DNA of 64,000 nt from Anaerolineae bacterium (lineage in GTDB: Bacteria > Chloroflexota > Anaerolineae > B4-G1 > SLSP01): the NCBI GenBank assembly GCA_034437255.1, contig DAOTUH010000126.1, positions 19,198 to 83,197 on the forward strand, in the 5' to 3' direction. The position numbers were made by a program, and so were the translations under genes. Of this stretch, positions 6,230 to 58,215 are shown piece by piece. Every line of letters begins with the position of its first letter. The stretch's first letter is position 1. The notes beneath the pieces were generated by a model that saw only the letters and a list, made by a program, of their open reading frames with translations, did not search any database and was not told the DNA's origin.

Positions 6230-6299
6230 CGGCGTTTCCTTGGATATTCTACGTCAACCATTCATAGATTTAACAGCAAAGGGCACCTAACCAGCACGT

Positions 6300-6450
6300 G
6301 TGTGGCTCGGTGGGACACCGGCCACAGCGCATCGTGTCAGCATTCGCACTGTGTGGCTCGGTGGGACACCGGCCACAGCGTATCGTGTTAGCATTCGCAC
6401 TGTGTGGCTCGGTGGGACACCGGCCAAAGCGTATCGTGTCAACATCCAGT
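6300..6450. repeat. Tandem direct repeat, 3 x 51 bp
   Basis: GTGTGGCTCGGTGGGACACCGGCCACAGCG(C/T)ATCGTGT(C/T)AGCATTCGCACT repeated three times with 1-2 mismatches. Contains the hairpin core CGGTGGGACACCG. Confidence 0.9.
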
Positions 6451-6452
6451 AC

Positions 6453-12408: not shown

Positions 12409-14375
12409 ACAGGCTTCAGGCTCTTGAGCAGATTCGTCGCCATCTCCGCCATGGCCTCCAGGAACTGCGCCCGGTTGATCTGGGCCTCCTTGACCATGTC
12501 GGCGTGAATCTTCCACAGCACCTCGTCGACACCGCCGTCCGCTTTCTCCGGCACATAGCTCTGGATGTCCCCGTCAAACTCGATACGCGTCAACGCACGC
12601 GGCGTCGCCGCAGCCTCTGCATCTTTGATGACAGCTGCGAGATCCTCAGTGGTGTAAGTTTCCACCTCCAGCGTGGGGATCTCCTCGGCGGCTTTGCCCA
12701 GCGCCTCCGCCAGTTGATCGGTGAAGGTGCGCAGCGAGTCGGTCAGCCCGGCGAACTGATCCCGCAGGCCGAAGGCGACGGCGTAGTCCTCGGCTCCTGA
12801 TGGCTCTGGTGCGAGCGCCGTGGTCGGTTCGCTTTCTTCCGAGGGTGCTGAGGCGGCTTCGCTCTCTGCTTCTGCCAGCTTCTCTTTTGTGCTCTCGCTG
12901 ATAGTGATGGTGGGACGCTCCGTCTGCGGGCTCTCTTCGTCCTCCGCCACCGAGAGGCGCACCGCCGGATCGCCGATGATGACGTAGCCGCGCGCGTCGT
13001 TGTTCGCCGTCCACATACCCGCTAGCTTCACGTCGTCGCGCCGCTTGTCGAACTCGTTGACCTCCTCGATCTCGCTGGCCAGCACCACGGAGAGCTCGGC
13101 GTGGCGCTCGTTGAACCACTCCAGAGCCGCGCCCACGGGATAACCGGCCATCAGCTGATCCAGCGTGTCTTGAAAGACCTGTAACTGGCGCCCTGCCCCG
13201 CTCCACAGGAAAGAGTATCCCCAGGCGCGCTCGACGTGGCCCACGACGGCCAACGCGCCGCCCTTGGGATGGCCCAGGAGCCGTTGCGGCAACCGCGCGA
13301 TAAAGGCGTGGGGCGCGATCTCGGCCGGCTCATCAAAGGCCCTGTGCGCAAACTGATCCAGCTTGGGCGTTCCCGCACCGTAGCAGGCGAAGAAGAAAGC
13401 CATGGTGCCGGCCAGCCGCGCGTTCGAGGCGACGTCATCGGCCGAGAAGTAGAACGCCTCAGGAATCGGATCGTGCCACTCACGGGGGCCAGGCCAATCC
13501 TCACAGAGCAGCGCGCCCTGGTGCTTGAGCTGGCGCGGGTCTCCTTTGGGAAAGCCCATCCCGTGACTGGCCGAGAAGAACAGTACCGGCGTCCCGTCGC
13601 CGCCCAACAGCGTTTCGAGACGCGCCTTGGTCGCCTGCCCGATGAACTGGCTATCCCACGACGGCTGTTTGTCCGACATGGCCTCGACCAGGGGACGCAC
13701 CAACTCCTTGGCACTCATCTCCGTCGCCCGGTCGTGCTGGTTCTTCACACCAAAGAATCGCGCGCGACGCGGCAGCCGTAAATCGCCGGTCTCCGCTGCC
13801 ACCACACTCTCCGCATACTGCGCGTACTCCTCGAGCGTGTCGAAGAAAATGCGCCCGACGGCATACTGCACGTCGAGCTGATACTGGAAGCGGTAGGGAA
13901 TCGTCTCTGGCCCGCCGACGATCAGCAGATAGTAGGGCACTTTGGCGGGATTGGCCGGCCCCGGCCCCATGTTGCGCGGATCGCGGCCCAAGAAATCCAA
14001 GTAGGAGTCGGCCGGCCGGTAGCCCGCCGCGCGCATGTACTCCTGATAGAATCGTTCGTCGTCCTGCGTGGCCTGCTCCTTGCGCAGATCCAACAGCGGC
14101 TTGAGGGCCTCACGGATCGCCGGGGCCCGTTCGTCCTTTGCTCCGAAAATTACGGCCCATCCCGTCTCCGCCAGGTTCGTCTGATCGGCATTGATGCCAA
14201 AATGTGGCTGCATGCTGTCATGGCGATTCTTCAACTCCCGGTAATACTCGTCATCTTTGCTCAAGGGCTCGCCCAGCGCGACCGACGCCACGTCCTCAGG
14301 CAGCATGGGCGGCGTCCAATACTTCCCGCTGGCACCATTGATACCATTGACGTAAAGCAGCTTCTCTTCATTCAT
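12405..14375 (-). CDS. Clan CD caspase/gingipain-like cysteine peptidase with extra C-terminal domain
   Basis: His motif LFFSASHGMGFP and Cys motif FFFACYGAGTP in the order and spacing typical of C14/C25 peptidases. ATG at 14375 overlaps the NTPase stop by 8 nt. Confidence 0.75.
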   Translation of the reverse strand: MNEEKLLYVNGINGASGKYWTPPMLPEDVASVALGEPLSKDDEYYRELKNRHDSMQPHFGINADQTNLAETGWAVIFGAKDERAPAIREALKPLLDLRKEQATQDDERFYQEYMRAAGYRPADSYLDFLGRDPRNMGPGPANPAKVPYYLLIVGGPETIPYRFQYQLDVQYAVGRIFFDTLEEYAQYAESVVAAETGDLRLPRRARFFGVKNQHDRATEMSAKELVRPLVEAMSDKQPSWDSQFIGQATKARLETLLGGDGTPVLFFSASHGMGFPKGDPRQLKHQGALLCEDWPGPREWHDPIPEAFYFSADDVASNARLAGTMAFFFACYGAGTPKLDQFAHRAFDEPAEIAPHAFIARLPQRLLGHPKGGALAVVGHVERAWGYSFLWSGAGRQLQVFQDTLDQLMAGYPVGAALEWFNERHAELSVVLASEIEEVNEFDKRRDDVKLAGMWTANNDARGYVIIGDPAVRLSVAEDEESPQTERPTITISESTKEKLAEAESEAASAPSEESEPTTALAPEPSGAEDYAVAFGLRDQFAGLTDSLRTFTDQLAEALGKAAEEIPTLEVETYTTEDLAAVIKDAEAAATPRALTRIEFDGDIQSYVPEKADGGVDEVLWKIHADMVKEAQINRAQFLEAMAEMATNLLKSLKPV

Positions 14376-17300
14376 AATTACTCTCCTCTGCGAATCCCTC
14401 CGCGTCCAAGTCCAACTCACTTTCCACGTACTGCCAGGATAAATCCAACACGTCCTCGAACCGTACCAGATACCGCCGTATGGTGCCATCCCTGGAACCG
14501 GAGGCCAGATAGTGGCCATCGGGGCTGAAGGCCAACGTGTACACGATGGGATCGGTATGCCCAGGAAGCACAGCCATCAACGTTGGCGCGCGGGCTGGGA
14601 ATCGATCCAACTTCCAGAGGCGCACGTGACTATCACGCGCCGCCGTCGCCAGGTACAGCCCGTCGGGTGAGAAAGCGACACCATAGACGAAGGCCGGATG
14701 CTTCAACGGCGCTACCACGGTCGTCATGGTCTGCATGCTCCAGAGGCGCGCCGTCTGGTCCCACGCGCCGGAGGCCAAATATTGGCCATCAGGGCTGAAG
14801 TCCAGGGCAGGCACGTAGTTGCTGTGCCCCGTCAGCGTGACCGCCATCGTGACGGAGAGGCCACGCTCGGTCTCTCGCACATCGAAGAGGTGGATGTTCC
14901 CACCCAGGTAGCCCAACGCCATCCGGTCCCCCTGAGGACTTAATGTCCCACCCCAGAGGCCGCCGCGCGGAATCGTCACGCGATGATCAAGCGTCCAATC
15001 CTCCGTCCGCCAGACAAAAGCCTGCCCGCCATTGGAGACAGTGAGGAGGAAGCGACCGTCCGGCGTGAAGAAGGCCCGCTCCACATCTGCACGGTGTCCT
15101 GTCAACGTGGCGATAAGCGCACCCGTGCCCGTGTCCCATACCCTCGCATTGTTATCCGTGGCGCAGGAGACCAGATATGCGCCGCTAGGACTATACACCA
15201 GGTCCCAGAGCTCACCGCCAAGATAGCCTTCGATCTCCCGGACCACGTTGCCGTGCACCTGGGACCAGATACGCACCTCTCCGCTCTTACTGGCCGAAGC
15301 GAGGAACGTGCCATCAGGGCTGTACGTCACCTTGCGCACCAAGTCGCTGTGTCCCGTGAGCGTCGAAAGACCGGCCTGCCGGGGGAAATCCCGGTCCCAG
15401 ATGCGCACCGTGTTGTCACCGGCGCCGGCAGCCACCCAGCGGTCATCCGGGCTGAAAGCAACGTCCAGCACTACGTTGCCCGGCCCCCTCAACACGCTGA
15501 TGGCGTGCTGGTTACGCGAGCCTACGTCCCATAGATGCACCGTCCGATCCCGCGAGCCGGAGAGCAGATAGCGCCCGTCGGCACTGAAGGCCAGGGTTCT
15601 CACCTCGGCGCTGTGCCCGACCAGTGTCAGAACGGCCTCACCTGTGTCGAGATCCCAGAGTCGAATCGTTTTATCGGCGGAGGCCGAGGCCAACAGCGGT
15701 TCCGTCGGGCTGAAAGCCACCGCTTCCACGGCTTCGGTATGGGCCGTCAGTTGGCGCGGCGGGCTGACCGACAGCAGGCTAGGACCTAGAGCCCGCAACT
15801 GCCAGAGCCAAACCGTCCCGTCGTAGCACGCCGCTGCCAGGGTGAATGGCTCTCCAGTAACCATGGCTTCGATAGGTGAAGCGGTGCCTGTGAACGCAAG
15901 ATCGGCCACGCGGCGCGGCAGCTCGTCCAGGGTGAGCAGCAGCTCCGGCACCAGCGTATCGCCCCGCCGGCCCAGGGACCAGATCCGTATCAGCCCCTCT
16001 TGATCAGGTGAGTAGACATCCCGCAGCGTTTCCCCATAATCCCCACCCGTGGCAAGATAGTAGCCCTGCGGGTCGAAGGCCACGGTGTAGATCTCATCGT
16101 ACATCCCATCCGGCGTTATGACGCGCAGGCTTTCTACCCACGTCTCGGCCTCTGTGTCCCAGATTTCCACGATGCCGCCGGTCTCTCCATCGTCGCCGCC
16201 GGTCGCCAGAAACCGTCCGTCGGGACTCAACGCAAGATCGTAAACGGCACCCCGCGTCGGGAGAGGGATTAGCGTTTTCACGTTCATGCGAGTGTCGATG
16301 CGTTGCACGCCGCCGGCGGGCAGTGCTGTATAGAGAAAGCGACCGGTCTCGTCATAGGCTACGCTATGCACTTGATCCATCAGGCCCCCATACACCGAGA
16401 CGGGATAATACTCCTGCACCGCCTGGCGCAGCATGATTTGGGCCTCGTAGGTATTGATCTCGCCCATCAGCGTCTGGCTGCTCTCCTGCCACCAGCCGCG
16501 CAGACTGGGCTGAGTCCCGGCGCGGGCCAACCGGATGCTCTGCTCCCGGTCGGTCTCCAACACCGAGCGTGCCTTGGCGGCCAACTCGCGGGAATAGGCC
16601 TGCAGGCCGTTACGCATGGCTATCCACGCCAGCAGGCTGACCACAACCAGCACCATCCCGGCGAAGACGGCGCCCACGAGACGCAAACGGCGTGCGCGGC
16701 GCTGCGCTTGATCGGCCCGGCGGCTGGCTTCCAAGAACTCCTCTTCGAAGGGCTCCAGCTGGTCGGGATGGACCTCGGCCCAGGCGAGCGCCTCCTCCAG
16801 CGTCGCGTCGAGGTACAGGAGCGCCGCGTCGTCGGTCTCCTTCCACCGCTTAGCCGTGGTGCGCAGCGGCGTCTGCCGCGCCGCCTCCCACGTGCGGTTC
16901 GACTGCCGGATGGGATCGATAAGCCGGTCGTGGACCAGCTCATACCAGCGGGCACCGGCGCGCAGGTCCGAGCGGATGAGGTGCCGGGCATCCAGCACAT
17001 CGACGGCGGTGTTGGGCAGACCGGCGGTCTCCTCCGGCCCGCGCATAGCCAGGCCGCGCGTTCCCACCGACGTGATAAGATGCTCGGCGGTCCAGCGACG
17101 CACCTGCCGTTCGGGCACCTCGGTCTCGGCGATGACGTGGGCGATGGCGCTCTCGTAGAAATCGACCAGGGCACGGTCAATATCGCCGTATTGCTGAACC
17201 TCGTTCCACTGGATCAGGTTGTCTTCCTGAGCCGGCAGGTTCGCCCACAGCCGCTGACAGACCACCTGCAGCTGCACCGGCTCGACGAAGCGCCCCAGCA

Positions 17301-18048
17301 CCTCAACCTCGTCGTCGCGCCCATACCGCTGCACCTTGCTGCGTCGCAGGTCGTCGACCAGGCGCTCGGCCACGCCCTCGTCGAAGGGAACGCCGGTCTG
17401 GGCCGCCGGCTTGCGGACGGCTTGGATGGCGCCCTCGACGCCCAGCCGCTCCATACGGAAGCGAGCGCGGAGCCGGCGGGGCAGCAGCGGCGCGTAGGGC
17501 TCGACTTCGGCAACGTAATCCTCCCGCATGGCAAAGACCACGCCCAACGTGGGCAGCGCGTCCAACGCCCCCTCAACCTGGACGAAGAAACTCTCGGCGT
17601 CCTGCCAGCGGTGGCGGTGCGCCGTAAAGAGCTCCTCGAACTGATCGACGATGAGCAGCGGCGGGCGGTCGTCATCGGGCAGATACGTCTGCAAGAAATC
17701 GAGCAGGGACTGTTCGCCCAGTGGCGCCGGCGGCTCGTCCTCGCCGACCAGCGAGAGCAGCACACTGAAGACGAAGACGTTGTCCACGTCCGCGTCGGTC
17801 AGGCCGGGCGGCAGATCGTTGGCGACGCGCACCACGGGCAGCACGTTGAAAAGCTCCTCCTCCAGCGCGAGGATGACCTCGGCGTTGAGCAATGACGTCT
17901 TGCCGGCGCCAGAGGGCGCGTAGAAGAGCACCACGCGCTCGGCCAGGATCAGGGAGAGCAAGTCGCGTGCCTCGCGGTTGCGCCCGAAGAAATTCTTGCG
18001 GTCGGCGCGCTCGTAGGGGCGGGGACCGACGTAGGGATTTCCTTTCAT
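14368..18048 (-). CDS. STAND-like (nSTAND1-like N-terminus) P-loop NTPase - single TM helix - WD40 beta-propeller
   Basis: The N-terminus NPYVGPRPYERADRKNFFGRNREARDLLSLI...LFYAPSGAGKTSLLNA shows an nSTAND-like signature. Hydrophobic helix LVGAVFAGMVLVVVSLLAWIAM near residue 480. At least 10 WD40 repeats (GHSAEVRTLAFSADGRYLLSGSRDRTVHLWD and others). Start ATG 18048 overlaps the upstream stop as ATGA. Confidence 0.85.
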   Translation of the reverse strand: MKGNPYVGPRPYERADRKNFFGRNREARDLLSLILAERVVLFYAPSGAGKTSLLNAEVILALEEELFNVLPVVRVANDLPPGLTDADVDNVFVFSVLLSLVGEDEPPAPLGEQSLLDFLQTYLPDDDRPPLLIVDQFEELFTAHRHRWQDAESFFVQVEGALDALPTLGVVFAMREDYVAEVEPYAPLLPRRLRARFRMERLGVEGAIQAVRKPAAQTGVPFDEGVAERLVDDLRRSKVQRYGRDDEVEVLGRFVEPVQLQVVCQRLWANLPAQEDNLIQWNEVQQYGDIDRALVDFYESAIAHVIAETEVPERQVRRWTAEHLITSVGTRGLAMRGPEETAGLPNTAVDVLDARHLIRSDLRAGARWYELVHDRLIDPIRQSNRTWEAARQTPLRTTAKRWKETDDAALLYLDATLEEALAWAEVHPDQLEPFEEEFLEASRRADQAQRRARRLRLVGAVFAGMVLVVVSLLAWIAMRNGLQAYSRELAAKARSVLETDREQSIRLARAGTQPSLRGWWQESSQTLMGEINTYEAQIMLRQAVQEYYPVSVYGGLMDQVHSVAYDETGRFLYTALPAGGVQRIDTRMNVKTLIPLPTRGAVYDLALSPDGRFLATGGDDGETGGIVEIWDTEAETWVESLRVITPDGMYDEIYTVAFDPQGYYLATGGDYGETLRDVYSPDQEGLIRIWSLGRRGDTLVPELLLTLDELPRRVADLAFTGTASPIEAMVTGEPFTLAAACYDGTVWLWQLRALGPSLLSVSPPRQLTAHTEAVEAVAFSPTEPLLASASADKTIRLWDLDTGEAVLTLVGHSAEVRTLAFSADGRYLLSGSRDRTVHLWDVGSRNQHAISVLRGPGNVVLDVAFSPDDRWVAAGAGDNTVRIWDRDFPRQAGLSTLTGHSDLVRKVTYSPDGTFLASASKSGEVRIWSQVHGNVVREIEGYLGGELWDLVYSPSGAYLVSCATDNNARVWDTGTGALIATLTGHRADVERAFFTPDGRFLLTVSNGGQAFVWRTEDWTLDHRVTIPRGGLWGGTLSPQGDRMALGYLGGNIHLFDVRETERGLSVTMAVTLTGHSNYVPALDFSPDGQYLASGAWDQTARLWSMQTMTTVVAPLKHPAFVYGVAFSPDGLYLATAARDSHVRLWKLDRFPARAPTLMAVLPGHTDPIVYTLAFSPDGHYLASGSRDGTIRRYLVRFEDVLDLSWQYVESELDLDAEGFAEESNYE

Positions 18049-20090
18049 CGTTGCGTCGCCTCCCACCGCTCGCGCAGCTCGGCCGTGAATTGATGTGTGC
18101 TACCCCAGAAGACGTTGATCTCAGCATCCTGGAAATACTGGCGCAGGAAGTGCTGCACGGCGCCTACGTCCTCCACCTTCCCACTGGCGCTGTCCAGTTG
18201 TACCGTGACGTGCTTGAAACGGTGTCGCTGATTGAGCGTGGTCACCAAGCCCCGCAGGATCACGCGAAACTCCCAATCGTAGAGGCTGTACCCGATGAAG
18301 AGCAGCGTGCTGTTAGCCAGCGCGCCCCGGATGTACGTGGGGATGCGCTCCATCTCCGCCGAGACCTTGACGAGGAAGTCGAGGTAGTGATCGGAGGTGA
18401 GCACCAGGGATTCCGGCACCTCGTCGTGACCGAAGAGATGGTAGACCAGCGGCGTGTCCGGCGTCGGCACGTAGTTGGGATCATCGGCAAAGCGGCTGGA
18501 GAGCCAATCCAGGTCGCGGTGCCAGGGGCAGATCTCGCGTTCAGCGTCTCGACCGCGCGCGGCTAGGGCCGCCGTCATGAAGTTATCGAGGTTGGTGGTG
18601 ACGTAGAGCGGCAAATTTAGATCTGCCAGCACCTCGTGCGGATCGTTAGGATCGTCACCGGCGATGCGCTGCCATTCCACTGCATCCACCAGATCCGACA
18701 CGCTCTCCGGCGGTTGGGATGGTTGCAATTCCTCCGGCAATCGCTCGTAGAAATGGTTCACCATGGTACTCAGCAGTTCGTAGCGGGGGAAATCCTCGCC
18801 CTGGCTGCTGGCGAGATACTGCGCCACCCACGGCAAGACGATGCGGTCGGCGAAGGGATAGGCGTGAAGTCGCGTCCACCCACCGGCGATTTCTCGGGGC
18901 AGGGGCAACCAGCGCCCATGCACTCTTGGCCCGATCACGGGGATGCACTTGCCGCGCTGGATCATACGCAGGAGTCCGGTCCAGAAGATCCGGGGATTCT
19001 GCCCACCCAGCACCGCGCCGCGCGCGTCGGCTTCGGCGCTCCACAGTTGGGCTGACTTGAGCCGCATAAAGAGCACGGGCACGGCAGCATCGGGGCGACC
19101 GGCGGAAAGCAACGTGCTCCGCGCCACGTTGAGCGCCACGTCCACCTGCCCGTCTTCAAGGAGTCGACAGTAGAACGTCGCGCTGAGCTTGCGGGCCGTC
19201 TCCACCGCCACAAAATCCTGCATGGCAACGACGGCGGGCACGCCGACGGCGACCAGCTTCGGCGCCAGTCCCCGGAAGGCGTCGCCGGTAGCCCGCTGCG
19301 CGCTCTGGCAGGCATTCAGAAAGATCAGGCGGGGTCGCACGTCCTGGCGCGCCAGCGTATGCACCAGCGCCTCGTCGGTAACGAGCTCCGTGGCGCCGTC
19401 CTCGTTCTGGAGAAAGAGCACGGCCCGCTCGCGCCGCCGGCTGTAGGCGCCGTGCCCCACGTAGTGCAGGATGTGATACCCTTCGCGCAACGCTGCTTCA
19501 AGCCGTTCCAGCGTGACGGGCGGCTCCAGAAAATCGAGGGCGATCTCGTCCTCGCTCATCTCTTCAAAAGCCGCCGTGAGCAGCGCGCGCTCGGTCTCCG
19601 TCTCCACCGGCGTCAGCTCGTAGGCCGATGCCAGATCACTGGGATTGGAGATGACCGCCAGCACACGAATGGGGCGTTCTTCGACGGCGCCGCCCCAAGG
19701 TAGCGAGACGGGCAGATAGCGCGAGAAGGGTGTCTTCGCCGTCGCCGAGAGCAGCGTCGTCCCGGTGTGGAGCAGTTCCCAGGGCAGCACGTGGAGCTCC
19801 GCCGCCTGCGCGTCGATGCGCAGCCTGATCCGGCGGCGTTCCGCTTGCCCGCGCACCTCGCTCCAGGCCTGGCGCAGCGCGTCGTCTTCTAGAAGCAAAT
19901 CGAGGAGCTGCTGCCCATCGGCTACGGGATCGCCGCTAGAGGTCCAGTTGGCCGCCTCCGCCGCCAGATAACCCCGGGGGAACTCCTGCTCTCCCTCAAG
20001 CGTGATCTCGACGGGATACCCTTGCTCTCGTCGGGGAAAGATGCGGACTTCCAAATCCGCGAATCCGTTCTTGGTGCCGGTTTCACGCAT
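18045..20090 (-). CDS. CHAT-domain protease fused to SIR2-like (SIR2_2-type) domain
   Basis: CHAT His/Cys dyad HYVGHG...LIFLNACQSA. C-terminal PLYVTTNLDNF...LLFIGYSLYDWEFRVIL matches SIR2_2-like motifs. ATG at 20090 with AAGGA SD preferred over the TTG at 20186. Confidence 0.8.
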   Translation of the reverse strand: MRETGTKNGFADLEVRIFPRREQGYPVEITLEGEQEFPRGYLAAEAANWTSSGDPVADGQQLLDLLLEDDALRQAWSEVRGQAERRRIRLRIDAQAAELHVLPWELLHTGTTLLSATAKTPFSRYLPVSLPWGGAVEERPIRVLAVISNPSDLASAYELTPVETETERALLTAAFEEMSEDEIALDFLEPPVTLERLEAALREGYHILHYVGHGAYSRRRERAVLFLQNEDGATELVTDEALVHTLARQDVRPRLIFLNACQSAQRATGDAFRGLAPKLVAVGVPAVVAMQDFVAVETARKLSATFYCRLLEDGQVDVALNVARSTLLSAGRPDAAVPVLFMRLKSAQLWSAEADARGAVLGGQNPRIFWTGLLRMIQRGKCIPVIGPRVHGRWLPLPREIAGGWTRLHAYPFADRIVLPWVAQYLASSQGEDFPRYELLSTMVNHFYERLPEELQPSQPPESVSDLVDAVEWQRIAGDDPNDPHEVLADLNLPLYVTTNLDNFMTAALAARGRDAEREICPWHRDLDWLSSRFADDPNYVPTPDTPLVYHLFGHDEVPESLVLTSDHYLDFLVKVSAEMERIPTYIRGALANSTLLFIGYSLYDWEFRVILRGLVTTLNQRHRFKHVTVQLDSASGKVEDVGAVQHFLRQYFQDAEINVFWGSTHQFTAELRERWEATQR

Positions 20091-20206
20091 GATCGTATCC
20101 TTGGCTATGGAAAATGCGCCACTTGAAGTGTGTCGGCCCAGATTCACCGAAGGTTCAAAAATAGTATAGCATAGATTTGAGGGCAAAACAATAGAGGTGT
20201 GGGAAG

Positions 20207-24522: not shown

Positions 24523-24614
24523 AATGATCTCCCTGGATAGTCAGATAGTCGTTAGTCGGGTAGTCGCTTAGTCATCTGGTCATTTTCAGGCGATAGAACG
24601 GACATAAGAAAGTC

Positions 24615-24759
24615 GTATCCGTTTAGTATTTTGGAGGTGCGACGCACTTAGGGATGCACATGCTACTGAATCTTCATGAACGACGCAAGAAGCCTCTGGT
24701 ATCATAGACTTGGGTTCGAAAGTGCGTTGCACCTGTCGTTTGCTCACAAAACTAAACGA
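24615..24759 (+). repeat. Conserved structured element E, divergent copy D
   Basis: Shares CCGTTTAG...GAGGTGCGACGCACT...AGTGCGTTGCACCTG...CTAAACG framework with copies at 30184, 42973 and 47229. Interior differs. Confidence 0.45.
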
Positions 24760-24850
24760 TTACAGAAAGTCAACGGATGCAAAAGGATGCAACGGATGGA
24801 ACGGATTAAAGATCAGAAATCCGTTCCATCCGCTAAATCCGTCGATCTGA

Positions 24851-26582: not shown

Positions 26583-26680
26583 ATCTCGTCTGAGCCGCCC
26601 CCGGGAGCGCGGAGCCTGCCTGGAGAGGCCCGGGGCCGGGAGCATCATTGCGCGGCTTTTACCCCAATGCCAAAAGAGGC
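26583..26680 (+). repeat. GC-rich ~95-nt element F, copy 1
   Basis: About 85% identical to 31796-31895. Inverted repeat CCCCGGG...CCCGGGG. Ends in CTTTTACCCCAATG. Confidence 0.5.
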
Positions 26681-29972: not shown

Positions 29973-30002
29973 TTGACAACACCGCCTTTTCCTCTGTATA
30001 AT
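29973..30002 (+). promoter_or_regulatory. Consensus promoter TTGACA-18-TATAAT
   Basis: Perfect -35 and -10 hexamers. About 370 nt upstream of the BMP gene start, implying a long leader that contains element E copy A. Confidence 0.6.
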
Positions 30003-30183
30003 GGCAGATGTCAGACAAATACATCCCCATTCGGATGCCCTTTATTAAGATGTTTCTTGTTCTGACACGTTTTCCCGGTAAAATCAGTCAAAGTGAAGTG
30101 TAACTATCGAATCCACCCTTGATCAGTGACGTGAAGGAGGTGAGAACTCGGCACCACTCGAATCAAGATAATGATCAAGTTTT

Positions 30184-30332
30184 GTATCTGTTTAGTCTTC
30201 TGGGGTACGACGCACTTTCGCTGACGTTCACGAACCTGGGATTCCTAAACTATGCTCGTAAAATATTGTAGCCCGGTTTGTTTCGGTTCGTAAGTGCGTT
30301 GCACCTGGACGCTCACAAACCTAGACGGTTAC
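30184..30332 (+). repeat. Conserved structured element E, copy A (5' leader of BMP gene)
   Basis: Nested potential helices CTGTTTAG/CTAGACGG and GGTACGACGCAC/GTGCGTTGCACC. Ends 40 nt before the GTG start at 30374. Confidence 0.55.
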
Positions 30333-30373
30333 CAAGTTTTTAGCAACATATCCTAAAGAGGAAGAAAAACACT

Positions 30374-31471: not shown

Positions 31472-31795
31472 TCACTGGGGTGTGTTTCGTTTGAGTCGCG
31501 TGCGTATTGCGTGTTGCGTATTCTACGCGAGAAGCTATCTTAGCGATGCCCGGCTCATTCAGAATACACGTAGTTCGTTCGGGTGGAGGGGGGGGACGCA
31601 CGTCTGCTCCCTCCGCCCCTCCAGCCTAGGACAGAAAACGTGAGGGGCAATGCCGGCTCACCAGGGAAGAGTAAAAATCGGACACGGACGAACACAGAAA
31701 AACACGGCAAAAACAAAAAACGAAGCGAAGCCGTAGCGAAGCCGTGGCGAAGCCGTGATCGCAGTCCGTGTTCTGCCGTGTCCTAAAATGGCATG

Positions 31796-31895
31796 ACGGT
31801 AGAGTACGCTTGAGGCGCCCCCAGGAGCGCGGAGCCTGCCTGGAGAGGCACGGGGGCTGGGAGCATCATTGTGCGTCTTTTACCCAAATGTCTAA
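31796..31895 (+). repeat. GC-rich ~95-nt element F, copy 2
   Basis: Matches 26583-26680. Located inside the 505-nt spacer between the SBP and ATPase genes. Confidence 0.5.
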
Positions 31896-31976
31896 AATAG
31901 AACCCTCGTTGTAGTAGTGTTAGCTGCTGCCAGACATTGCCGTTGACGTTTTAGGTTCTATGAAGAGGAGAAATTT

Positions 31977-35669: not shown

Positions 35670-36086
35670 ATGACAGATGACTATCGAGCTGCTTTTTACC
35701 GACATTGGGATAGCTCTGCCTTATTAGCACAAGAAGCCCAGGGAGAGTCCGGTTCTACCGCCCTACGATACTGGCAGGAAGCCGCTTACTTGGCAGGGTA
35801 TATCGTTGAATGTGGCACGAAGATGATGATAGAGGAAGCTGATGGCAATCCTTGGGGACACGATCTCGGAGAGCTAAAAAACCAGGCTCTGGCGGTCGCC
35901 AGCACCTTGCGTTTACCCGCCCAACTTTCCAGTCTGTTGAGCAGAATAGACACAGGAGATCTCCAAAATTGGCACCCGAGCCTGCGTTATGCTGCAGAGG
36001 AGCCAGGGGAACTTGGCTCTTATCAAGGTATCGTGAGTGAATCTCATGACCTTGCAAATGAGTTGTATGTCTGGATAACAAGGTAA
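35670..36086 (+). CDS. HEPN-like small protein (candidate)
   Basis: 138 aa. ALRYWQEAAYLAGYIVECGTKMMI resembles the HEPN helix pattern. Lower-GC DNA. Start is 3 nt after the permease stop. Confidence 0.4.
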   Translation: MTDDYRAAFYRHWDSSALLAQEAQGESGSTALRYWQEAAYLAGYIVECGTKMMIEEADGNPWGHDLGELKNQALAVASTLRLPAQLSSLLSRIDTGDLQNWHPSLRYAAEEPGELGSYQGIVSESHDLANELYVWITR

Positions 36087-36101
36087 GAGGATAGGGGGAA
36101 C

Positions 36102-37472
36102 ATGATGCAGAGCATCAGGTTCGATGATGTGTTAGCAAAGATAGTTGACATTATTTGCAATTTTCAGCATGCCAACCTCTTGCAGAGCGTCACGCTTATC
36201 CGCGATCCTTTGGGACGGGTTCAATTGGCCTTGGCGTGGAAAGCCGAAGGGGAAGGCCGTCAAAGGATACCAGAGTGGGTTGCAGAATTGGAACACAAGT
36301 GTCGAGAGGGCCTGGGTATCTATTGGCGATCCGTCATCTGGACGTTGACGGGGATGGAAGAACAGCTGTCAGAGCCAGGTGCCCAACAACTCATGCGTCA
36401 GGCCCGCGGCGATTCGGGACAACAGGCTTGGTCGGCGTTGTGGGAGGAGATATGTGCGCAACGGGTGCCTTGGTCCCACCCCCTCACCAAAACGTCGGCG
36501 TTTGCCTGGTACAAGATCGAGAAGGTTTTTTCCAATGCCAGTTGGTTGACTCCCCCGGCTAAACCGCTGTGGCCTTTAGACGCCCAAAATCCGGCCGTGG
36601 TGGCATTTCATTCTTTTAAAGGCGGTGTTGGTCGGACATTGTCCGTCGCCGCCGTAGCCCTTATCTTGGCACAGAACGGGCAAAACGTTGCTATACTCGA
36701 TCTGGATCTGGAAGCACCAGGGTTGGGAGAACTGTTCTTTGATGTAGAAAATTTTGACTTGGGCGTGGTGGATTATTTGCTGGCGTATCAACTCACAGGG
36801 CAACGGCCCAGCACACTCAGCCGGCACGTTGCCAACATCACAGATTCCACGTTAATTGGAGATATATACCAACAACCCATTCGGCTTTTGCCAGCTGGCC
36901 CCATTGATACGAATTTCCCGGAGAAGATAAGTCGCCTGGATTGGGGTGCGAGCATGCGGACGCAAATCTCTGGAGACGCGCTGAAAGCATTGCTCCGACA
37001 TGTACGCGATCAATATAGCCCGGATTTTGTCCTCCTTGATTCTCGCTCCGGTTTGCACGATCTTGGGGGTCTGTCTCTGCTGCACCTCAGTCACCTGGCG
37101 ATTTTGTTGGGGCGTGATACGTCCGCAAGCTGGCATGGATTACAGGTCATCCTAGAACTCTTCCGAGATGCCCCGCACGCGCCCCTATTTTTCCTAGTTG
37201 AGGCATTGGTCAGGCCGGAAGAGCTGAACGGCGAGCTTTGGGATCTAGACTATCAAAGCCGCGCTCAGCAGATCATGATGGAGATCAGTTACCCTAAAGA
37301 TCTACCCGATCTGGGTTTCTCTCTTTATGGCGTACCGATTGTGTACGATAAGACGCTCCACGCGGTGACGCGGATCAACGAATCTGTGGCAGAGCGCCTA
37401 ACTGGGGCAGAAAGCGACTATGTTCGTCTGACACAGGAGATCTGTTTGCAGGTGGAACGAACGTGTTTCTAG
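36102..37472 (+). CDS. ParA/MinD-family deviant Walker A (KGGVGRT) ATPase with ~200-aa N-terminal domain of unknown function
   Basis: VVAFHSFKGGVGRTLSVAAVALILAQNGQNVAILDLDLEAPGL. Walker B-like FVLLDSRSG. Lower-GC DNA. Confidence 0.7.
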   Translation: MMQSIRFDDVLAKIVDIICNFQHANLLQSVTLIRDPLGRVQLALAWKAEGEGRQRIPEWVAELEHKCREGLGIYWRSVIWTLTGMEEQLSEPGAQQLMRQARGDSGQQAWSALWEEICAQRVPWSHPLTKTSAFAWYKIEKVFSNASWLTPPAKPLWPLDAQNPAVVAFHSFKGGVGRTLSVAAVALILAQNGQNVAILDLDLEAPGLGELFFDVENFDLGVVDYLLAYQLTGQRPSTLSRHVANITDSTLIGDIYQQPIRLLPAGPIDTNFPEKISRLDWGASMRTQISGDALKALLRHVRDQYSPDFVLLDSRSGLHDLGGLSLLHLSHLAILLGRDTSASWHGLQVILELFRDAPHAPLFFLVEALVRPEELNGELWDLDYQSRAQQIMMEISYPKDLPDLGFSLYGVPIVYDKTLHAVTRINESVAERLTGAESDYVRLTQEICLQVERTCF

Positions 37473-37497
37473 TCGATCACGTTGAGGGCAGGAAAAC

Positions 37498-39042
37498 ATG
37501 AAACATAGGGATGAGTTGTTACACGCTCTGGAAAAAATCGGTCAATGGGGAGCCAAGGCCGAGACACTGGATCAAGAAACTTTACTCCATGCCACCCTCC
37601 CTACCCAGGCATTGAAACTCATTCATGATCCCGAGATTCTGCTCATTGTGGGAGGACGTGGGGCCGGGAAAACCCATCTTTTCCGTCTACTGAACATCTT
37701 GGAAGCGCGCGAGATTCATCTGGAGGAGATGATACTCCGACAACGCGAGCAGGATCGTTGGCTTACCGGTTTCAGCACGTTGACCGATGCCGGGCAGCGA
37801 TTCCCAACGTCCTCTACCCTCCATGCGCTGGCCAAAGACCGGACTCGCGCAGAGCTGGTTTATTTCTGGCGAGGCTTGTTGGCCCACGTCTTGCTGCGCA
37901 AGCGTGACGAGGCCTTTCTTGCGCCTTTCCACGCGACCCTGCAAGATGCCCTTTCAGCTCAAGCGTTCAAGACGTTAAGCCAGGATGTTTTCAAAATCAA
38001 CCATATATGGGACCTCACGCAATCTTCCAACGTCTCTGCGGCTATGGATCAAGCCTTCTACAAGCTAGACGCGAGCTTGAAGTCGTCGGGTCAAGAGCAG
38101 TATCTGTTCATCACCTATGATGACCTAGATCATCTGGCTCTAGATTGGGAACAGGGCCGTAAATTGATCCAATCCCTGTTTCAGTTCTGGATGGAACAAT
38201 GGCGAATTCTGCATTACATACGCCCCAAGATTTTTATCCGTCAGGATTTGTGGGCACCGGAGTTCTTGGATTTCCCCGATGCCAGTAAATTCAACGCACA
38301 CCGGATAGTGTTGACGTGGACGCCGCGCCTGCTATACCAGCTGGTGTTCAAGGCCTGGGCCAACGTGCCGGAGCCACTCGGTAAGGCGGTGCGCGATTTT
38401 TTAGATCATCATCTTCAAATCCGATTTAGCCAAGGCGCATTGGGTTGGATGTACGAAGATTACCCCCGCCATCCCAACGAAGGCGAACTCCAAGCGGTGA
38501 TGCACGCCCTCGTCGGACCATATATGGGCAGCGGCCCGACCAAAGGCCGCTCTTACAATTGGCCCCCCAATCACCTGCAGGATGCGAAAGGCGACCTTTA
38601 CCCCCGTTCTATGCTGCTACTTTTCTCCAAAGCGGCGAGTGATGAGCTCAGCTATGGACGTGGGCGCGAAGATCCGGCATATCTACTGACGCCGACTTCA
38701 TTCCGACAAGCGATGACGGAAGTCTCCAAGCAGCGGCTTCTAGAACTGGAAGAGGAATATCCTTGGATTAAACGGCTTAAGCCTCATTTGCAAGATAAGT
38801 TGGTTCCCATGCCGCAGAGTGAAATGGAGGAACTACTAAAGGAGATTTCATGGGAGGAAGCGTCGTCCCGCGAGACCCCGCCACATACCGCTCCGCGCCA
38901 GTTGATAGCGTACATGCTTTCCATTGGCGTCCTCCGCCGGACCAATGACGGGCGACTACATGTGCCCGATATCTATCTTTATGGCTTTGAGCTTAAGCGC
39001 AAAGGCGGTATTCGTAAGCCAAGAGAGGAACTCCAATTTTGA
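37498..39042 (+). CDS. P-loop NTPase (AAA/STAND-like) of unknown family
   Basis: Walker A LIVGGRGAGKTHLF. Walker B YLFITYDDLDHL. 514 aa. Lower-GC DNA. Confidence 0.7.
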   Translation: MKHRDELLHALEKIGQWGAKAETLDQETLLHATLPTQALKLIHDPEILLIVGGRGAGKTHLFRLLNILEAREIHLEEMILRQREQDRWLTGFSTLTDAGQRFPTSSTLHALAKDRTRAELVYFWRGLLAHVLLRKRDEAFLAPFHATLQDALSAQAFKTLSQDVFKINHIWDLTQSSNVSAAMDQAFYKLDASLKSSGQEQYLFITYDDLDHLALDWEQGRKLIQSLFQFWMEQWRILHYIRPKIFIRQDLWAPEFLDFPDASKFNAHRIVLTWTPRLLYQLVFKAWANVPEPLGKAVRDFLDHHLQIRFSQGALGWMYEDYPRHPNEGELQAVMHALVGPYMGSGPTKGRSYNWPPNHLQDAKGDLYPRSMLLLFSKAASDELSYGRGREDPAYLLTPTSFRQAMTEVSKQRLLELEEEYPWIKRLKPHLQDKLVPMPQSEMEELLKEISWEEASSRETPPHTAPRQLIAYMLSIGVLRRTNDGRLHVPDIYLYGFELKRKGGIRKPREELQF

Positions 39043-39530
39043 AAGAAACAGAACCTGCTTTCAGATCCATGCAGCCCACTTCGCGCATGTGTTTCGTATG
39101 TGGACGAGAAAATCCGACCGGTTTGCATATCCAGTTCTACGAAAACCGTGCCGAAGAGCAGGTCGTCGCGCACGTCGAAATCCCCGATTCGTATCAGGGC
39201 TATCCCGGCATCGCCCACGGCGGGATTGTCGCCGCGATTCTGGACGAGGTCTCCGGTCGCGCCGTCATGATGGACGCGGACGAGACGCCCTTCTGGGTCA
39301 CGGCGAAACTCGAGATCCGTTACCGCGAGCCGACGCCCACCGAAACGCCGCTGGAAGCGGTCGGCTGGGTAGAGGAGCGCCACCGACGTTCGGCCCGGGT
39401 CGCCGGGGAGCTCCGGCGTGAAGATGGCACCGTCACCGCCGAGGTCACGTCCGTCGTCGTCTGCCCCAGGGAGGAGACGCTGCGCGAGTGGCAACAGGAG
39501 CGCGAGTTCTGGCGAGTGACGGACACCTGA
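39039..39530 (+). CDS. PaaI/hotdog-fold thioesterase
   Basis: GIAHGGIVAAILDEVSGRAV hotdog motif. 163 aa. Confidence 0.75.
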   Translation: MKETEPAFRSMQPTSRMCFVCGRENPTGLHIQFYENRAEEQVVAHVEIPDSYQGYPGIAHGGIVAAILDEVSGRAVMMDADETPFWVTAKLEIRYREPTPTETPLEAVGWVEERHRRSARVAGELRREDGTVTAEVTSVVVCPREETLREWQQEREFWRVTDT

Positions 39531-42859: not shown

Positions 42860-42972
42860 TTGTAGGATAGGACGACGAGCACGAGGAGACATCCGATTTC
42901 GCGTGAAGTTCACGTTGAGAAATCGGATGTCTTTTCCCAACCACAGGCATTTGAGCTGTGGCTTTAGCAGAA

Positions 42973-43121
42973 GTATCTGTTTAGTCTTCTGAGGTGCGAC
43001 GCACTTTCGCCGAAGTTCACGAGCCGAGGACTCCTAAACCATGCTCGGAGAACTTTGTAGCGCGGTTTATTTCGATCCGTAAGTGCGTTGCACCTGGACG
43101 CTCATAAACCTAAACGGTTGC
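42973..43121 (+). repeat. Conserved structured element E, copy B (5' leader of ABC ATPase gene)
   Basis: About 95% identical to copy C and about 85% to copy A. Ends 20 nt before the ATG at 43142. Confidence 0.55.
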
Positions 43122-43141
43122 TAGCAAAAAAGGATAAGCGC

Positions 43142-46617: not shown

Positions 46618-46671
46618 GGCTGACGCAAGCTTTCTTAATGCTCCCCGCTCTCGTCAACCGCGTAGCCTAGT

Positions 46672-46900
46672 GGAGGCCGGGGGCGGGCACGGTGGGGACA
46701 CCGGCCCGAACGAGAAGGTAGGCGTGATGGGGAGGCCGGGAACGGGCACGGTGAGGACACCGGTCCGAACTAGAGAAGAGCGGGCGCGGTGGGGAGACTG
46801 GGGGCGGGCACGGTAGGGACACCGGCCCGAGCGAGAGAAGGGCGGGCGCGGTGGGGAGATCGGCCCGAACTTTAGGGACACCGGCTCGAGATACCCGTGG
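46672..46900. repeat. Tandem direct repeat, ~60 bp x 3.5
   Basis: Units GGAGGCCGGGGGCGGGCACGGTGGGGACACCGGCCCGAACGAGAAG.... Shares the core CGGTGGGGACACCGGCC with the 6300-6450 array. Confidence 0.9.
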
Positions 46901-47033: not shown

Positions 47034-47228
47034 GTAGTTTCCTCCTCGTCGTACAAAATCATCAACGGATTTAGCGGGTTAAATACGAGTACGGACTTAC
47101 CAGCATGATCGTGGACTGCTTTGTGACTTTGGAAGGACATGCTCACAGGAGCGAGTCGCCCTTTGAATCTGTTGGGAAAGCTCGCACGTGTACTGAAGAA
47201 GACATTCGCGTCTGGGAAAACGGAGGGT

Positions 47229-47377
47229 GTATCTGTTTAGTCTTCTAAGGTGCGTCGCACTTTCGCCGACGTTCACGAGCCGGGGACTCCTAAACCATGC
47301 TCGGAGAACTTTGTAGCGCGGTTTGTTTCGATCCGTAAGTGCGTTGCACCTGGACGCTCACAAACCTAAACGGTTGC
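47229..47377 (+). repeat. Conserved structured element E, copy C
   Basis: Nearly identical to copy B. Lies 3' of the convergent CAP-domain gene and is not in a leader. Confidence 0.55.
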
Positions 47378-47384
47378 CGGAGGG

Positions 47385-48512
47385 TTAGCGGCGGCGCAGA
47401 AAGAGTGCGATGCCCAGAAGCCAGGCGATGCCCTGCAGGAGGAAGATGATCAGCACCGGCCAATCGGTGCCACCGTTGGATTCGACCCACGTTTCGGTGG
47501 GAAGCGGCGTCCACGTCGGTAGAGGCGTGATCTCGGCGCTCTCGGTTGTATCGAGCGGCGTCTGCGTCGGGAGCGGCGTGCTCTCCTCGACGGAGGGGAC
47601 GGGCCTTGTCGGGAGCGGCGTCGGCGCGGTCTCACCACCGGCGCCCTCGGGCGTGGATGTGGGCAACGGCGTGACTTCGGGCACCGCCGTCGTCTCGGGC
47701 AGCGGCGATTCTGTCGGCGCATCACCGGGAGACACCAGCCGAATCGTGTCCTCGCTGATCGTGGTTCGCCCTGCGCCATCCCGGAACTGTACGTAGACCG
47801 CGTAGCTCCCCGGTTCCGTGCCCTCCAACGTCCAGGGCACGAGTTCCTCCCAGGGCTGCCACGGTTCGCCGTCAAAATCGGGGCTGTTGCTGATGCGGAT
47901 CTCAATGGCCTCGCCGATCCGCGCGCCCTCGCCGAGCGGCTCGGCCTGCTCGTTGGTAAGGCGCAGCGCAACTTGTGGGGACTCCGTCACCTTGGCTCCA
48001 TCGTTGATGAAAATGGGGAGTACGCCAGGACGCGAGCCGAAGTCGACGACAAAGTAATTGACGCCCTGGGGATCGCTGGCGTAGCCCACGCCGACCTCGC
48101 GATAGCGCGGATCAACGAAGAACTTCCAGCGGTCCGGCTCCTCACGGAACCAGTTGAGGGCATTCTCCGCCGTTCCCAACCCGGCCCAGATGGTCTCATT
48201 GACCAACAAGCCGTTGTCCCAGGCCTGATAGCCCGCTTCCCGGATGCGCTGCTGGTACGTGGACCCGTCCGACCCCACCTGATCGATGCGGGCATTCTCG
48301 GCCATGTCGGTGGCGTGACGCTGGGCCGCGTTGGTCAAGAGCGTGGAGGAGGCCAGCGGCGGCAGGCCCTGATCCAGTCGCGCCTGGTTGATCAGGCGAA
48401 GAAAGAGCCGCGCCGGATCGTCCTGCGTCCGCGCGATGGGCCGACCTGCGTGCAGCCAGAGCAGACTGCCAAATAGAATGCTCGCCAAGATGATGCGCAG
48501 GGTCCGCCTCAT
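47385..48512 (-). CDS. CAP (SCP/PR1-like) domain protein with Pro/Thr-rich linker and C-terminal TM anchor
   Basis: CAP motifs HATDM...ENI..G...A...W..E and VGVGY...YFVVDFG. Signal peptide at M54. ATG 48512 overlaps the upstream stop (ATGA). Confidence 0.8.
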   Translation of the reverse strand: MRRTLRIILASILFGSLLWLHAGRPIARTQDDPARLFLRLINQARLDQGLPPLASSTLLTNAAQRHATDMAENARIDQVGSDGSTYQQRIREAGYQAWDNGLLVNETIWAGLGTAENALNWFREEPDRWKFFVDPRYREVGVGYASDPQGVNYFVVDFGSRPGVLPIFINDGAKVTESPQVALRLTNEQAEPLGEGARIGEAIEIRISNSPDFDGEPWQPWEELVPWTLEGTEPGSYAVYVQFRDGAGRTTISEDTIRLVSPGDAPTESPLPETTAVPEVTPLPTSTPEGAGGETAPTPLPTRPVPSVEESTPLPTQTPLDTTESAEITPLPTWTPLPTETWVESNGGTDWPVLIIFLLQGIAWLLGIALFLRRR

Positions 48513-57879: not shown

Positions 57880-58016
57880 ACAAGGCGCCGTCTGCCGGAT
57901 GGACTTGCAGTTTCAGATCAGCACATCACTTAAAAAGCACCGATACTGACGCGCGCCATCTGATACGAGAACAAAATAACGGTCAACTCGCAACCTTGGC
58001 TGCCATGAAAAAAGGT

Positions 58017-58116
58017 CCAAAACTCGGAGTTTTAGTGGTTTACCCCCTACATCTAGTGATTTTGGTTACGAAAAATCTACATGTAGTGTCAAGTTCCGGA
58101 AAACTCCGAGTTTTCC
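58017..58116. repeat. Inverted pair of 15-bp near-palindromes AAAACTCSGAGTTTT separated by ~60 bp
   Basis: 58017-58035 and 58097-58116 are reverse complements. Between them lies a CTACATCTAGTG / CTACATGTAGTG repeat. Confidence 0.7.
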
Positions 58117-58133
58117 CAGTTATTTCAGTGCAG

Positions 58134-58215
58134 TCAAAATTTACCATCTTATGAATTTCCTTTACGTTCTTGGCGGCTATGCATGAGGTTGATGGTTATT
58201 TCAGTGCAGTCAACA
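58134..58215 (+). repeat. Conserved ~72-nt element R, copy 2, with mini-ORF MNFLYVLGGYA (58151-58186) and 19-bp flanking direct repeat
   Basis: Matches 2441-2513. GTTATTTCAGTGCAGTCAA occurs at 58119-58137 and 58195-58213. Confidence 0.5.

Follow-up and report, generated by a model that had tools for sequence, protein, structure and literature searches.

[quoted passage not shown] Insertion sequences of the IS66 family are recognised by terminal repeats starting with GTAAGCG and by 8-bp direct repeats (PMC11946415), and REP sequences by a GTAG or CGTC tag at the base of the stem (PMC3733652). Here we analysed a window of 64 kb (the whole stretch of Anaerolineae DNA under study) that holds four copies of a repeated element. 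This element resembles the MITEs named above in being non-coding and within the range of 70-300 bp, in having terminal inverted repeats and target-site duplications, in occurring as many dispersed and mostly intergenic copies that are often co-transcribed as a long hairpin RNA, and in showing insertion polymorphism between relatives. To our knowledge MITEs are little documented in Chloroflexota, and the family to which these copies belong is a previously undescribed MITE family with IS66-like ends.

The element, its copies and its ends

All four copies lie on the plus strand of the window, and each one is exactly 149 bp long and aligns with the others over its full length (Table 1). The first-pass annotation had reported a repeat of about 150 nt occurring four times on the plus strand, which is what we find, the copies aligning end to end; the end that it had given for copy D, 24759, has been corrected to 24763 because the boundary analysis gives exactly 149 bp for every copy. 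Pairwise identities over the 149 nt are 96% for B and C, 88% for A and C and 87% for A and B, and copy D, at about 66% identity overall, has mainly its ends in common with copies A-C. The invariant 16-mer AAGTGCGTTGCACCTG occurs six times in the window when both strands are counted (0.05 occurrences expected), and this recurrence is not the product of chance.

Each end of the element is a composite inverted repeat. The outermost 12 nt form a tip (GTATCYGTTTAG on the left, CTAAACGGTTAC on the right), and inward of it, beyond a non-homologous spacer of 7-13 nt, lies a sub-terminal module of 15 nt, AGGTGCRACGCACTT. The terminal inverted repeats are imperfect, GTATCTGTTTAG pairing with CTAAACGGTTAC and AGGTGCGACGCACTT with AAGTGCGTTGCACCT, and 91.9% of the inverted-repeat cells are paired in the 10 family members aligned (see below). 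An 8-bp direct repeat abuts both edges of each copy exactly, and the octamer differs from copy to copy; it is perfect in three of the four copies (A, C and D) and has one mismatch in copy B. Because these duplications sit exactly at the edges of the copies, the outer helix of the repeat corresponds to the terminal inverted repeats. These flanking duplications had been missed in the first-pass annotation.

Table 1. Coordinates of the element copies in the window, with their ends and flanking duplications, and loci and families that contain the sub-terminal module
Feature	Location	Strand	Description
Copy A	30184-30332	+	149 bp; most diverged of the A-C subfamily; 5' leader of the BMP1 (PnrA-like) gene
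Copy A, left target-site duplication	30176-30183		CAAGTTTT
Copy A, left terminal tip	30184-30195	+	GTATCTGTTTAG; IS66-like GTATC start
Copy A, left sub-terminal module	30203-30217	+	GGGTACGACGCACTT; degenerate form of AGGTGCRACGCACTT
Copy A, right sub-terminal module	30292-30306	+	AAGTGCGTTGCACCT
Copy A, right terminal tip	30321-30332	+	CTAGACGGTTAC; reverse complement GTAACCGTCTAG
Copy A, right target-site duplication	30333-30340		CAAGTTTT; perfect
Copy B	42973-43121	+	149 bp; between the BMP2 gene and its ABC ATPase gene
Copy B, left target-site duplication	42965-42972		TAGCAGAA; single in the empty site of L123
Copy B, sub-terminal modules	42992-43006 and 43081-43095		
Copy B, right target-site duplication	43122-43129		TAGCAAAA; 1 mismatch
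Copy C	47229-47377	+	149 bp; between convergent DUF1385 and CAP-domain genes; abuts the CAP stop codon
Copy C, left target-site duplication	47221-47228		CGGAGGGT
Copy C, right target-site duplication	47378-47385		CGGAGGGT; perfect
Copy D	24615-24763	+	149 bp; distinct subfamily with the same ends and unrelated interior; between minus-strand Fe-ADH and aldehyde:ferredoxin oxidoreductase genes, antisense to both
Copy D, left target-site duplication	24607-24614		AGAAAGTC
Copy D, right target-site duplication	24764-24771		AGAAAGTC; perfect
Module, example loci	L004:4330-4361; L075:1705-1738; L033:1489-1579; L070:4486-4619; L072:912-993		
Module family i	window, L021, L043		tips GTATCYGTTTAG; 8 bp duplication
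Module family ii	L008, L072, L091		tips GTWWCTRCTCAG, directly abutting the module; 8 bp duplication
Module family iii	L070, L078, L080		tips TAGGGCAATCGCA...; 9-11 bp duplication
Module family iv	L033, L074, L035, L052		tips GGGTGYGTTTCA; 9 bp duplication; tight hairpin at centre

A scan of the genome collection with the 16-mer returned at least 110 loci. The full 149-bp element is present at four loci of the metagenome-assembled genome (MAG) Anaerolineae bacterium E05-010 bin29, with flanks unrelated to the window, making eight full-length copies over two genomes at unrelated loci, and both intact bin29 copies are bordered by perfect 8-bp duplications (CCTCTTTC at L021 and GAACTACC at L043). 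Sister elements of 145 bp (L122), 130 bp (L100) and 122 bp (L095), to which copy D of the window can be added, have about 40 nt in common at each end and unrelated interiors, and related families in other MAGs are likewise flanked by duplications (CCCTCGTT at L072, CGCGCTTC at L008, GTGAGTTA/GTGAATTA at L091). The composite-end pattern gave a single match in the metagenome scan, the sister family of L122, and none in viral contigs. Perfect flanking 8-mers occur in 10 of 46 split-arm elements and in 1 of 42 in the displaced control.

Terminal inverted repeats combined with a duplication of fixed length and variable sequence are the signature of transposition. Stop codons interrupt all six frames of the 149-bp element, the longest open stretch being 48 aa, and Pfam scans of 30 proteins of the window, which covered nearly all the gene-like open reading frames of at least 200 aa, gave no transposase; we accordingly class the element as non-autonomous. 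Several short-read contigs break off within copies, as is expected of a dispersed repeat. We conclude that the 149-bp element is almost certainly a non-autonomous MITE. The first-pass annotation had kept a repetitive extragenic element as its alternative, and this alternative was the right one; its sharper form is a MITE, bounded by terminal inverted repeats and flanked by 8-bp duplications.

Gene context, empty sites and the regulatory-RNA reading

The reading preferred in the first-pass annotation was that of a cis-regulatory RNA, or of paired operators, for the BMP genes. In its most specific version, the leaders of the BMP nucleoside-transporter genes would contain a riboswitch or attenuator whose sensing of a purine or nucleoside depends on GTTTAG pairing alternatively with an internal CCTAAAC. 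The gene context on which this reading was built is real. A perfect TTGACA-18-TATAAT promoter lies upstream of copy A (29973-30002), the leader is about 365 nt long, and copy A ends 41 nt (not 40, as first counted) before the GTG start of the Bmp/PnrA-like BMP1 gene; for copy B the distance to the ATG of the second transporter's ABC ATPase gene is, as had been noted, 20 nt. Both copies are thus in sense orientation just 5' of transporter genes, those downstream encoding Bmp/PnrA-like binding proteins and ABC ATPases, and copy A follows a promoter, all of which favours the riboswitch. Against it, copies C and D lie outside leaders, as the first-pass annotation itself had recognised, C between convergent genes and D antisense, so that orientation with respect to transcription is inconsistent. 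The placement of all copies on the plus strand was dismissed as a signal, because it has a probability of 1/8 by chance and the orientation to flanking genes is inconsistent. No promoter-like or terminator-like signals were found in or beside the copies.

The leader of BMP1 also contains a box, GAAGGAGGTGAGA, at 30133-30145 of the window, which is near-perfect as a Shine-Dalgarno-like sequence and has no obvious start codon following it. It is kept in the BMP1 leader of a relative of about 80% identity (L123:~87-99), and it may be a genuine leader signal of the BMP1 operon.

In the second genome the copies show no link with BMP or purine genes. The bin29 copies adjoin genes for an MBL hydrolase and an AlaX-like protein, for a xylose-isomerase-like TIM-barrel protein (AP_endonuc_2) and GH31, for DUF3592 and TetR, and for PadR and an iron-type binding protein, and no BMP or purine gene stands beside any of the four.

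Comparison with relatives of the window was more direct. Contigs of the source population, from the microbial-mat metagenomes PRJEB25599 and JGI 3300012002 and 3300012009 and the MAG GCA_964457985.1, are 98.9-99.8% identical to the window and all carry all four copies. No empty site was found among these near-identical strains, and there is consequently no evidence of current activity, a point that counts against the MITE. The relatives L123 (BMP2 94% identical in amino acids, about 80% in nucleotides) and L127 (80% in amino acids) show full synteny over both BMP operons, and in these syntenic regions neither of them has a copy of the element or the motif. The spacer between BMP2 and ATPase2 measures 282 nt in the window as opposed to 110 nt in L123 and 102 nt in L127. 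At site B the sequence of L123 reads ...CTTAGCAGAA|AGAGGATAAGCGCATG and that of the window ...TTTAGCAGAA[149 bp]TAGCAAAAAAGGATAAGCGCATG, L123 being a precise empty site where the octamer TAGCAGAA stands once and the element is missing. At site A, removal of 157 nt (the element and one duplication) restores collinearity with L123, the distance from the GAAGGAGGTGAGA box to the start codon then being 71 nt in the window and 67 nt in L123, although this comparison is noisier than that at site B because the leader has diverged. The element has inserted with duplication of an 8-bp target, has conserved ends and a variable interior, is non-coding and is absent from relatives. Orthologous operons that do without it, and target-site duplications that show its arrival by insertion, both speak against a riboswitch, and we infer that its adjacency to the BMP transporter genes is incidental.

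The structure of the element gave no better support to a regulatory RNA. The two nested complementary segments described in the first-pass annotation are both present and form the minimum-free-energy fold. The second internal CCTAAAC that was to act as the switch exists in copies A-C; it is absent from copy D and from the related families, and is thus not conserved. Rfam 15 had no match over the whole window, either at gathering thresholds or at E<=1. We aligned 10 family members (the four copies of the window, the four of bin29, L122 and L100), in which RNAalifold retains only the two inverted-repeat helices and no conserved interior structure, the interior, with its CCTAAAC, being unconserved in copy D, L122 and L100. 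The covariation score of the helices was 0.103 compared with a mean of 0.106 after shuffling, 302 of 500 shuffles scoring as high. In the inner helix 10 of 15 pairs are invariant and no pair has changed on both sides, the invariance of the 3' arm being partly due to its use as the search key; the sole pair scored as changed on both sides is due to L099 and L046, whose tips are damaged. Folding of the plus strand (z-scores from -2.0 to -3.7, another point in favour of the riboswitch) is somewhat better than that of the minus strand (from -1.3 to -2.7), which sits less easily with a MITE. The difference is due to a few G-U pairs, and both strands fold as a long hairpin because any inverted-repeat element must do so. 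The changes in copy A weaken both helices, as would be expected of a copy that decays neutrally and less so of one whose structure is maintained.

From the Rfam null, the lack of covariation, the unconserved interior and the inconsistent orientation we therefore reject the regulatory-RNA reading, and consider a nucleoside-sensing riboswitch or attenuator extremely improbable. The first-pass annotation was right in its observation, a real repeat correctly described, and its preferred interpretation is the part that has to be given up. For the MITE that we favour instead, co-transcription of copies A and B would allow the inverted repeats to fold into a long RNA hairpin (predicted at about -44 to -55 kcal/mol), and such a hairpin in the leader (A) or just 5' of the ribosome-binding site of the ATPase gene (B) could alter the stability or processing of the mRNA as a side effect. 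We infer that it is not a ligand-responsive switch.

Other repeats and insertions are found in the same DNA. An 86-nt repeat that forms a GC-rich hairpin occurs at 26591-26675 and 31811-31896 (88% identical), its second copy lying inside the BMP1-ATPase1 spacer. This spacer measures 505 nt in the window and 135 nt in L123, at least two blocks having enlarged it by insertion. One block, at the start of this spacer (31478-31560, GGGTGTGTTTCG...), which L123 does not have, resembles the tip GGGTGYGTTTCA of module family iv and could be a degraded member of that family. Another small repeat family, 92% identical, is found at 2437-2514 and 58136-58213 with an inverted partner at 2317-2357; the repeat at 58119-58213 is flanked by a 19-20-nt direct repeat, and the BMP1-ATPase1 spacer of L127 (L127:1169-1300) has a 79% match to window positions 58007-58137, mostly just upstream of it. 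From such related repeats in the window and in this spacer of L127, BMP-ATPase spacers seem to have been repeatedly colonised by different small repeats.

Tandem repeats include three units of about 61 nt (46662-46844), whose number varies among near-identical strains (higher in L111, lower by one in L112 and L113) and which occupy a spacer where L123 and L127 have a YitT-family gene that is missing from the window, and three 51-nt units (6299-6451, 84-96% identical) between glycosyltransferase and Ig-like-domain genes. Direct repeats with a period of 246-264 nt inside an M23 peptidase gene (9729-10421) correspond to tandem SH3_3 domains and are thus coding repeats, not mobile DNA. An insertion of about 3.4 kb and lower G+C content (0.53) between the two transporter clusters (35670-39070), absent from L123 and L127, encodes a 138-aa protein, a ParA/AAA_31-like protein of 456 aa and a 514-aa protein with no Pfam match. 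On the minus strand, at 14368-20186, adjacent genes encode an nSTAND1 NTPase-WD40 protein (1232 aa) and a CHAT-SIR2_2 protein (713 aa), a combination reminiscent of conflict or defence systems.

Transposase family and the sub-terminal module

The mechanism that we envisage for the MITE involves a DDE transposase, encoded elsewhere, that would bind the composite ends, using the tip for cleavage and the sub-terminal module for binding, and would cut intergenic DNA with an 8-bp stagger and insert the element there. This enzyme is probably of the IS66 type, because a genuine IS66 element has matching tips, GTATCY on the left and GTAAsC on the right, and a duplication of 8 bp as well. The element used for comparison (L128) is annotated and carries tnpA, tnpB and tnpC; its left end reads GTATCC, its right end GTAAGC, and the 8-bp sequence duplicated at its boundaries is GGCGCGCC. 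In our family the left ends are GTATCY and the right ends GTAACCG (copy A), GTAATCG (copy D) and GTAAGCG (L122), a likeness that covers just 6-7 nt. Since no autonomous partner was found, the assignment is drawn from this tip similarity and from the length of the duplication, and on these sequence features we lean towards an IS66-type MITE moved in trans.

An autonomous partner with these ends was sought in the window and in about 941 kb of Anaerolineae DNA from the loci, where none appeared, and facing tips 60-4000 bp apart with duplications were not found either. Searches of the same 941 kb by tblastn with IS66 TnpA, TnpB and TnpC, a probe validated at 84% identity to annotated genes, returned nothing significant. 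Two candidates were discarded: a weak tblastn match in L075 falls inside a NifS-like gene, and the sole long arm pair, of 2.8 kb in L005, encloses a formate-tetrahydrofolate ligase gene and not a transposase.

The inner module, AGGTGCAACGCACTT, is, as an inverted pair, far more widespread than the 149-bp element. Among the matches listed, 98 of 110 loci belong to Chloroflexota, in at least about 55 species-level MAGs with the labels Anaerolineae, Anaerolineales, Caldilineaceae, Ardenticatenaceae, Promineifilum and Thermoflexales, and, of the 12 loci in other phyla, 10 have an unpaired, chance-like match; in viral contigs, which serve as the chance control, the 15-mer had 24 matches, 23 of them unpaired. 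The spacing of the arms among the Chloroflexota matches listed is bimodal, with 59 pairs separated by loops of 0-9 nt and 35 pairs by 50-79 nt. In the tight form a 16-bp stem closes a loop of 3-4 nt, the flanks are not conserved and there is no duplication, as in the example of L075, which lies where 38 nt separate a nifS-like from an iscU-like gene; such solitary module hairpins are 34-36 nt long. The module also lies inside at least four MITE-like families that differ in their tips and in the length of their duplications (Table 1). Rare variants alter both arms jointly (CAG/CTG in L061, CAC/GTG in L090). No gene family travels with the motif among the matches listed (110 loci), only housekeeping superfamilies recurring there, and a literature search on the motif string and on REPs in Anaerolineae found nothing relevant.

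This distribution weighs against a plain MITE interpretation in two ways, the conserved part being the sub-terminal module more than the tip, and the same module recurring in families with unrelated tips and in solitary hairpins that have no duplications. Its wide spread is therefore not explained by a simple transposase-binding site of one IS family. Conservation of the module under differing tips leaves as candidates a host-factor site, a sub-terminal transposase site common to these families, or a selected hairpin. Tentatively, the module could be a class-wide element maintained by the Anaerolineae host, either a REP-like hairpin or the site of a putative DNA- or RNA-binding factor, that at least four MITE families independently incorporated or were built around; this is possible, and we would not put it higher than that. 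If true, the element of the window would report on an undescribed repeat or host-factor system in Chloroflexota, for which the IHF sites common to IS ends, BIMEs and Correia elements offer a possible analogy.

Should the GTGC-N3-GCAC dyads of the module be sites of a putative host protein, such as a transcription factor or nucleoid protein, the element would spread pairs of operators and rewire nearby operons. In agreement with this, the module is exact in at least about 55 Chloroflexota species with variable surroundings, the central triplet of the half-site is its most variable part, as in the spacer of a dyad, and MITE families with different tips have it in common. Yet no regulator or other gene family accompanies the motif, the neighbouring genes are functionally unrelated, and the two arms vary together (in the L061 and L090 variants), which favours a constraint on a hairpin or on paired ends over two independent half-sites, and we consider a dispersed operator of this kind unlikely. 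The solitary 34-36-nt palindromes with 3-4-nt loops in short intergenic spacers (L075), the clustered arrays at L031, L088 and L097 and the two classes of arm spacing (0-9 and 50-79 nt) recall elements of the REP/REPIN type, which depend for their movement on a RAYT (HUH tyrosine transposase); the two inverted modules would then be REP singlets that together make up a REPIN. Nevertheless, a 149-bp element with terminal inverted repeats outside the modules and 8-bp duplications is not made by HUH/IS200-type transposition, the base of the stem is flanked by CA...TG and bears no GTAG or CGTC tag, and a recurrent transposase-like gene near the motif was not found among the matches listed, all of which makes this origin very unlikely. 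The MITE thus remains our reading of the 149-bp element.

Significance and comparison with known systems

Recognition of these copies as a MITE removes a false riboswitch lead from the window, the link with nucleoside transporters being an accident of where a small transposon landed. Such a family disrupts short-read assemblies, enlarges intergenic spacers within operons and can mimic structured RNAs in motif screens, and masking of such elements matters for the discovery of non-coding RNAs in metagenome-assembled genomes. The insertions 20 nt before the start of the ATPase gene and in the 5' leader are natural test cases of the effects of long hairpins on operon expression. The class-wide inner module is the only part that could lead to something new, perhaps to a conserved host factor or to a mobilisation signal common to unrelated MITE families.

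In comparison with the MITEs known from other bacteria, the Anaerolineae element is a different sequence family from an uncultured lineage. Its inverted repeat is composite (12-nt tip, 7-13-nt spacer, 15-nt module), its module recurs in other MITE families and in solitary hairpins, and it differs from them also in the lack of detected promoter-like or terminator-like signals. With the IS66 family it has in common the 8-bp duplication and the asymmetric GTATC/GTAAsC ends, which fit the GTAAGCG consensus (PMC11946415), but it has no tnpA, tnpB or tnpC, and the similarity of the ends stops after 6-7 nt. Like the REP and BIME sequences of proteobacteria, the solitary module is an extragenic palindrome of about 35 nt, sometimes clustered and often placed within operons, for example in the gap between a binding-protein gene and the gene downstream. 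This placement after a binding-protein gene recalls the REPs between malE and malF in E. coli. REPs, however, lack the tips and duplications of the 149-bp element, neither this element nor the module carries the GTAG or CGTC tag, and no RAYT gene was found; and whereas REPs are species-specific, the module is conserved over a whole class.
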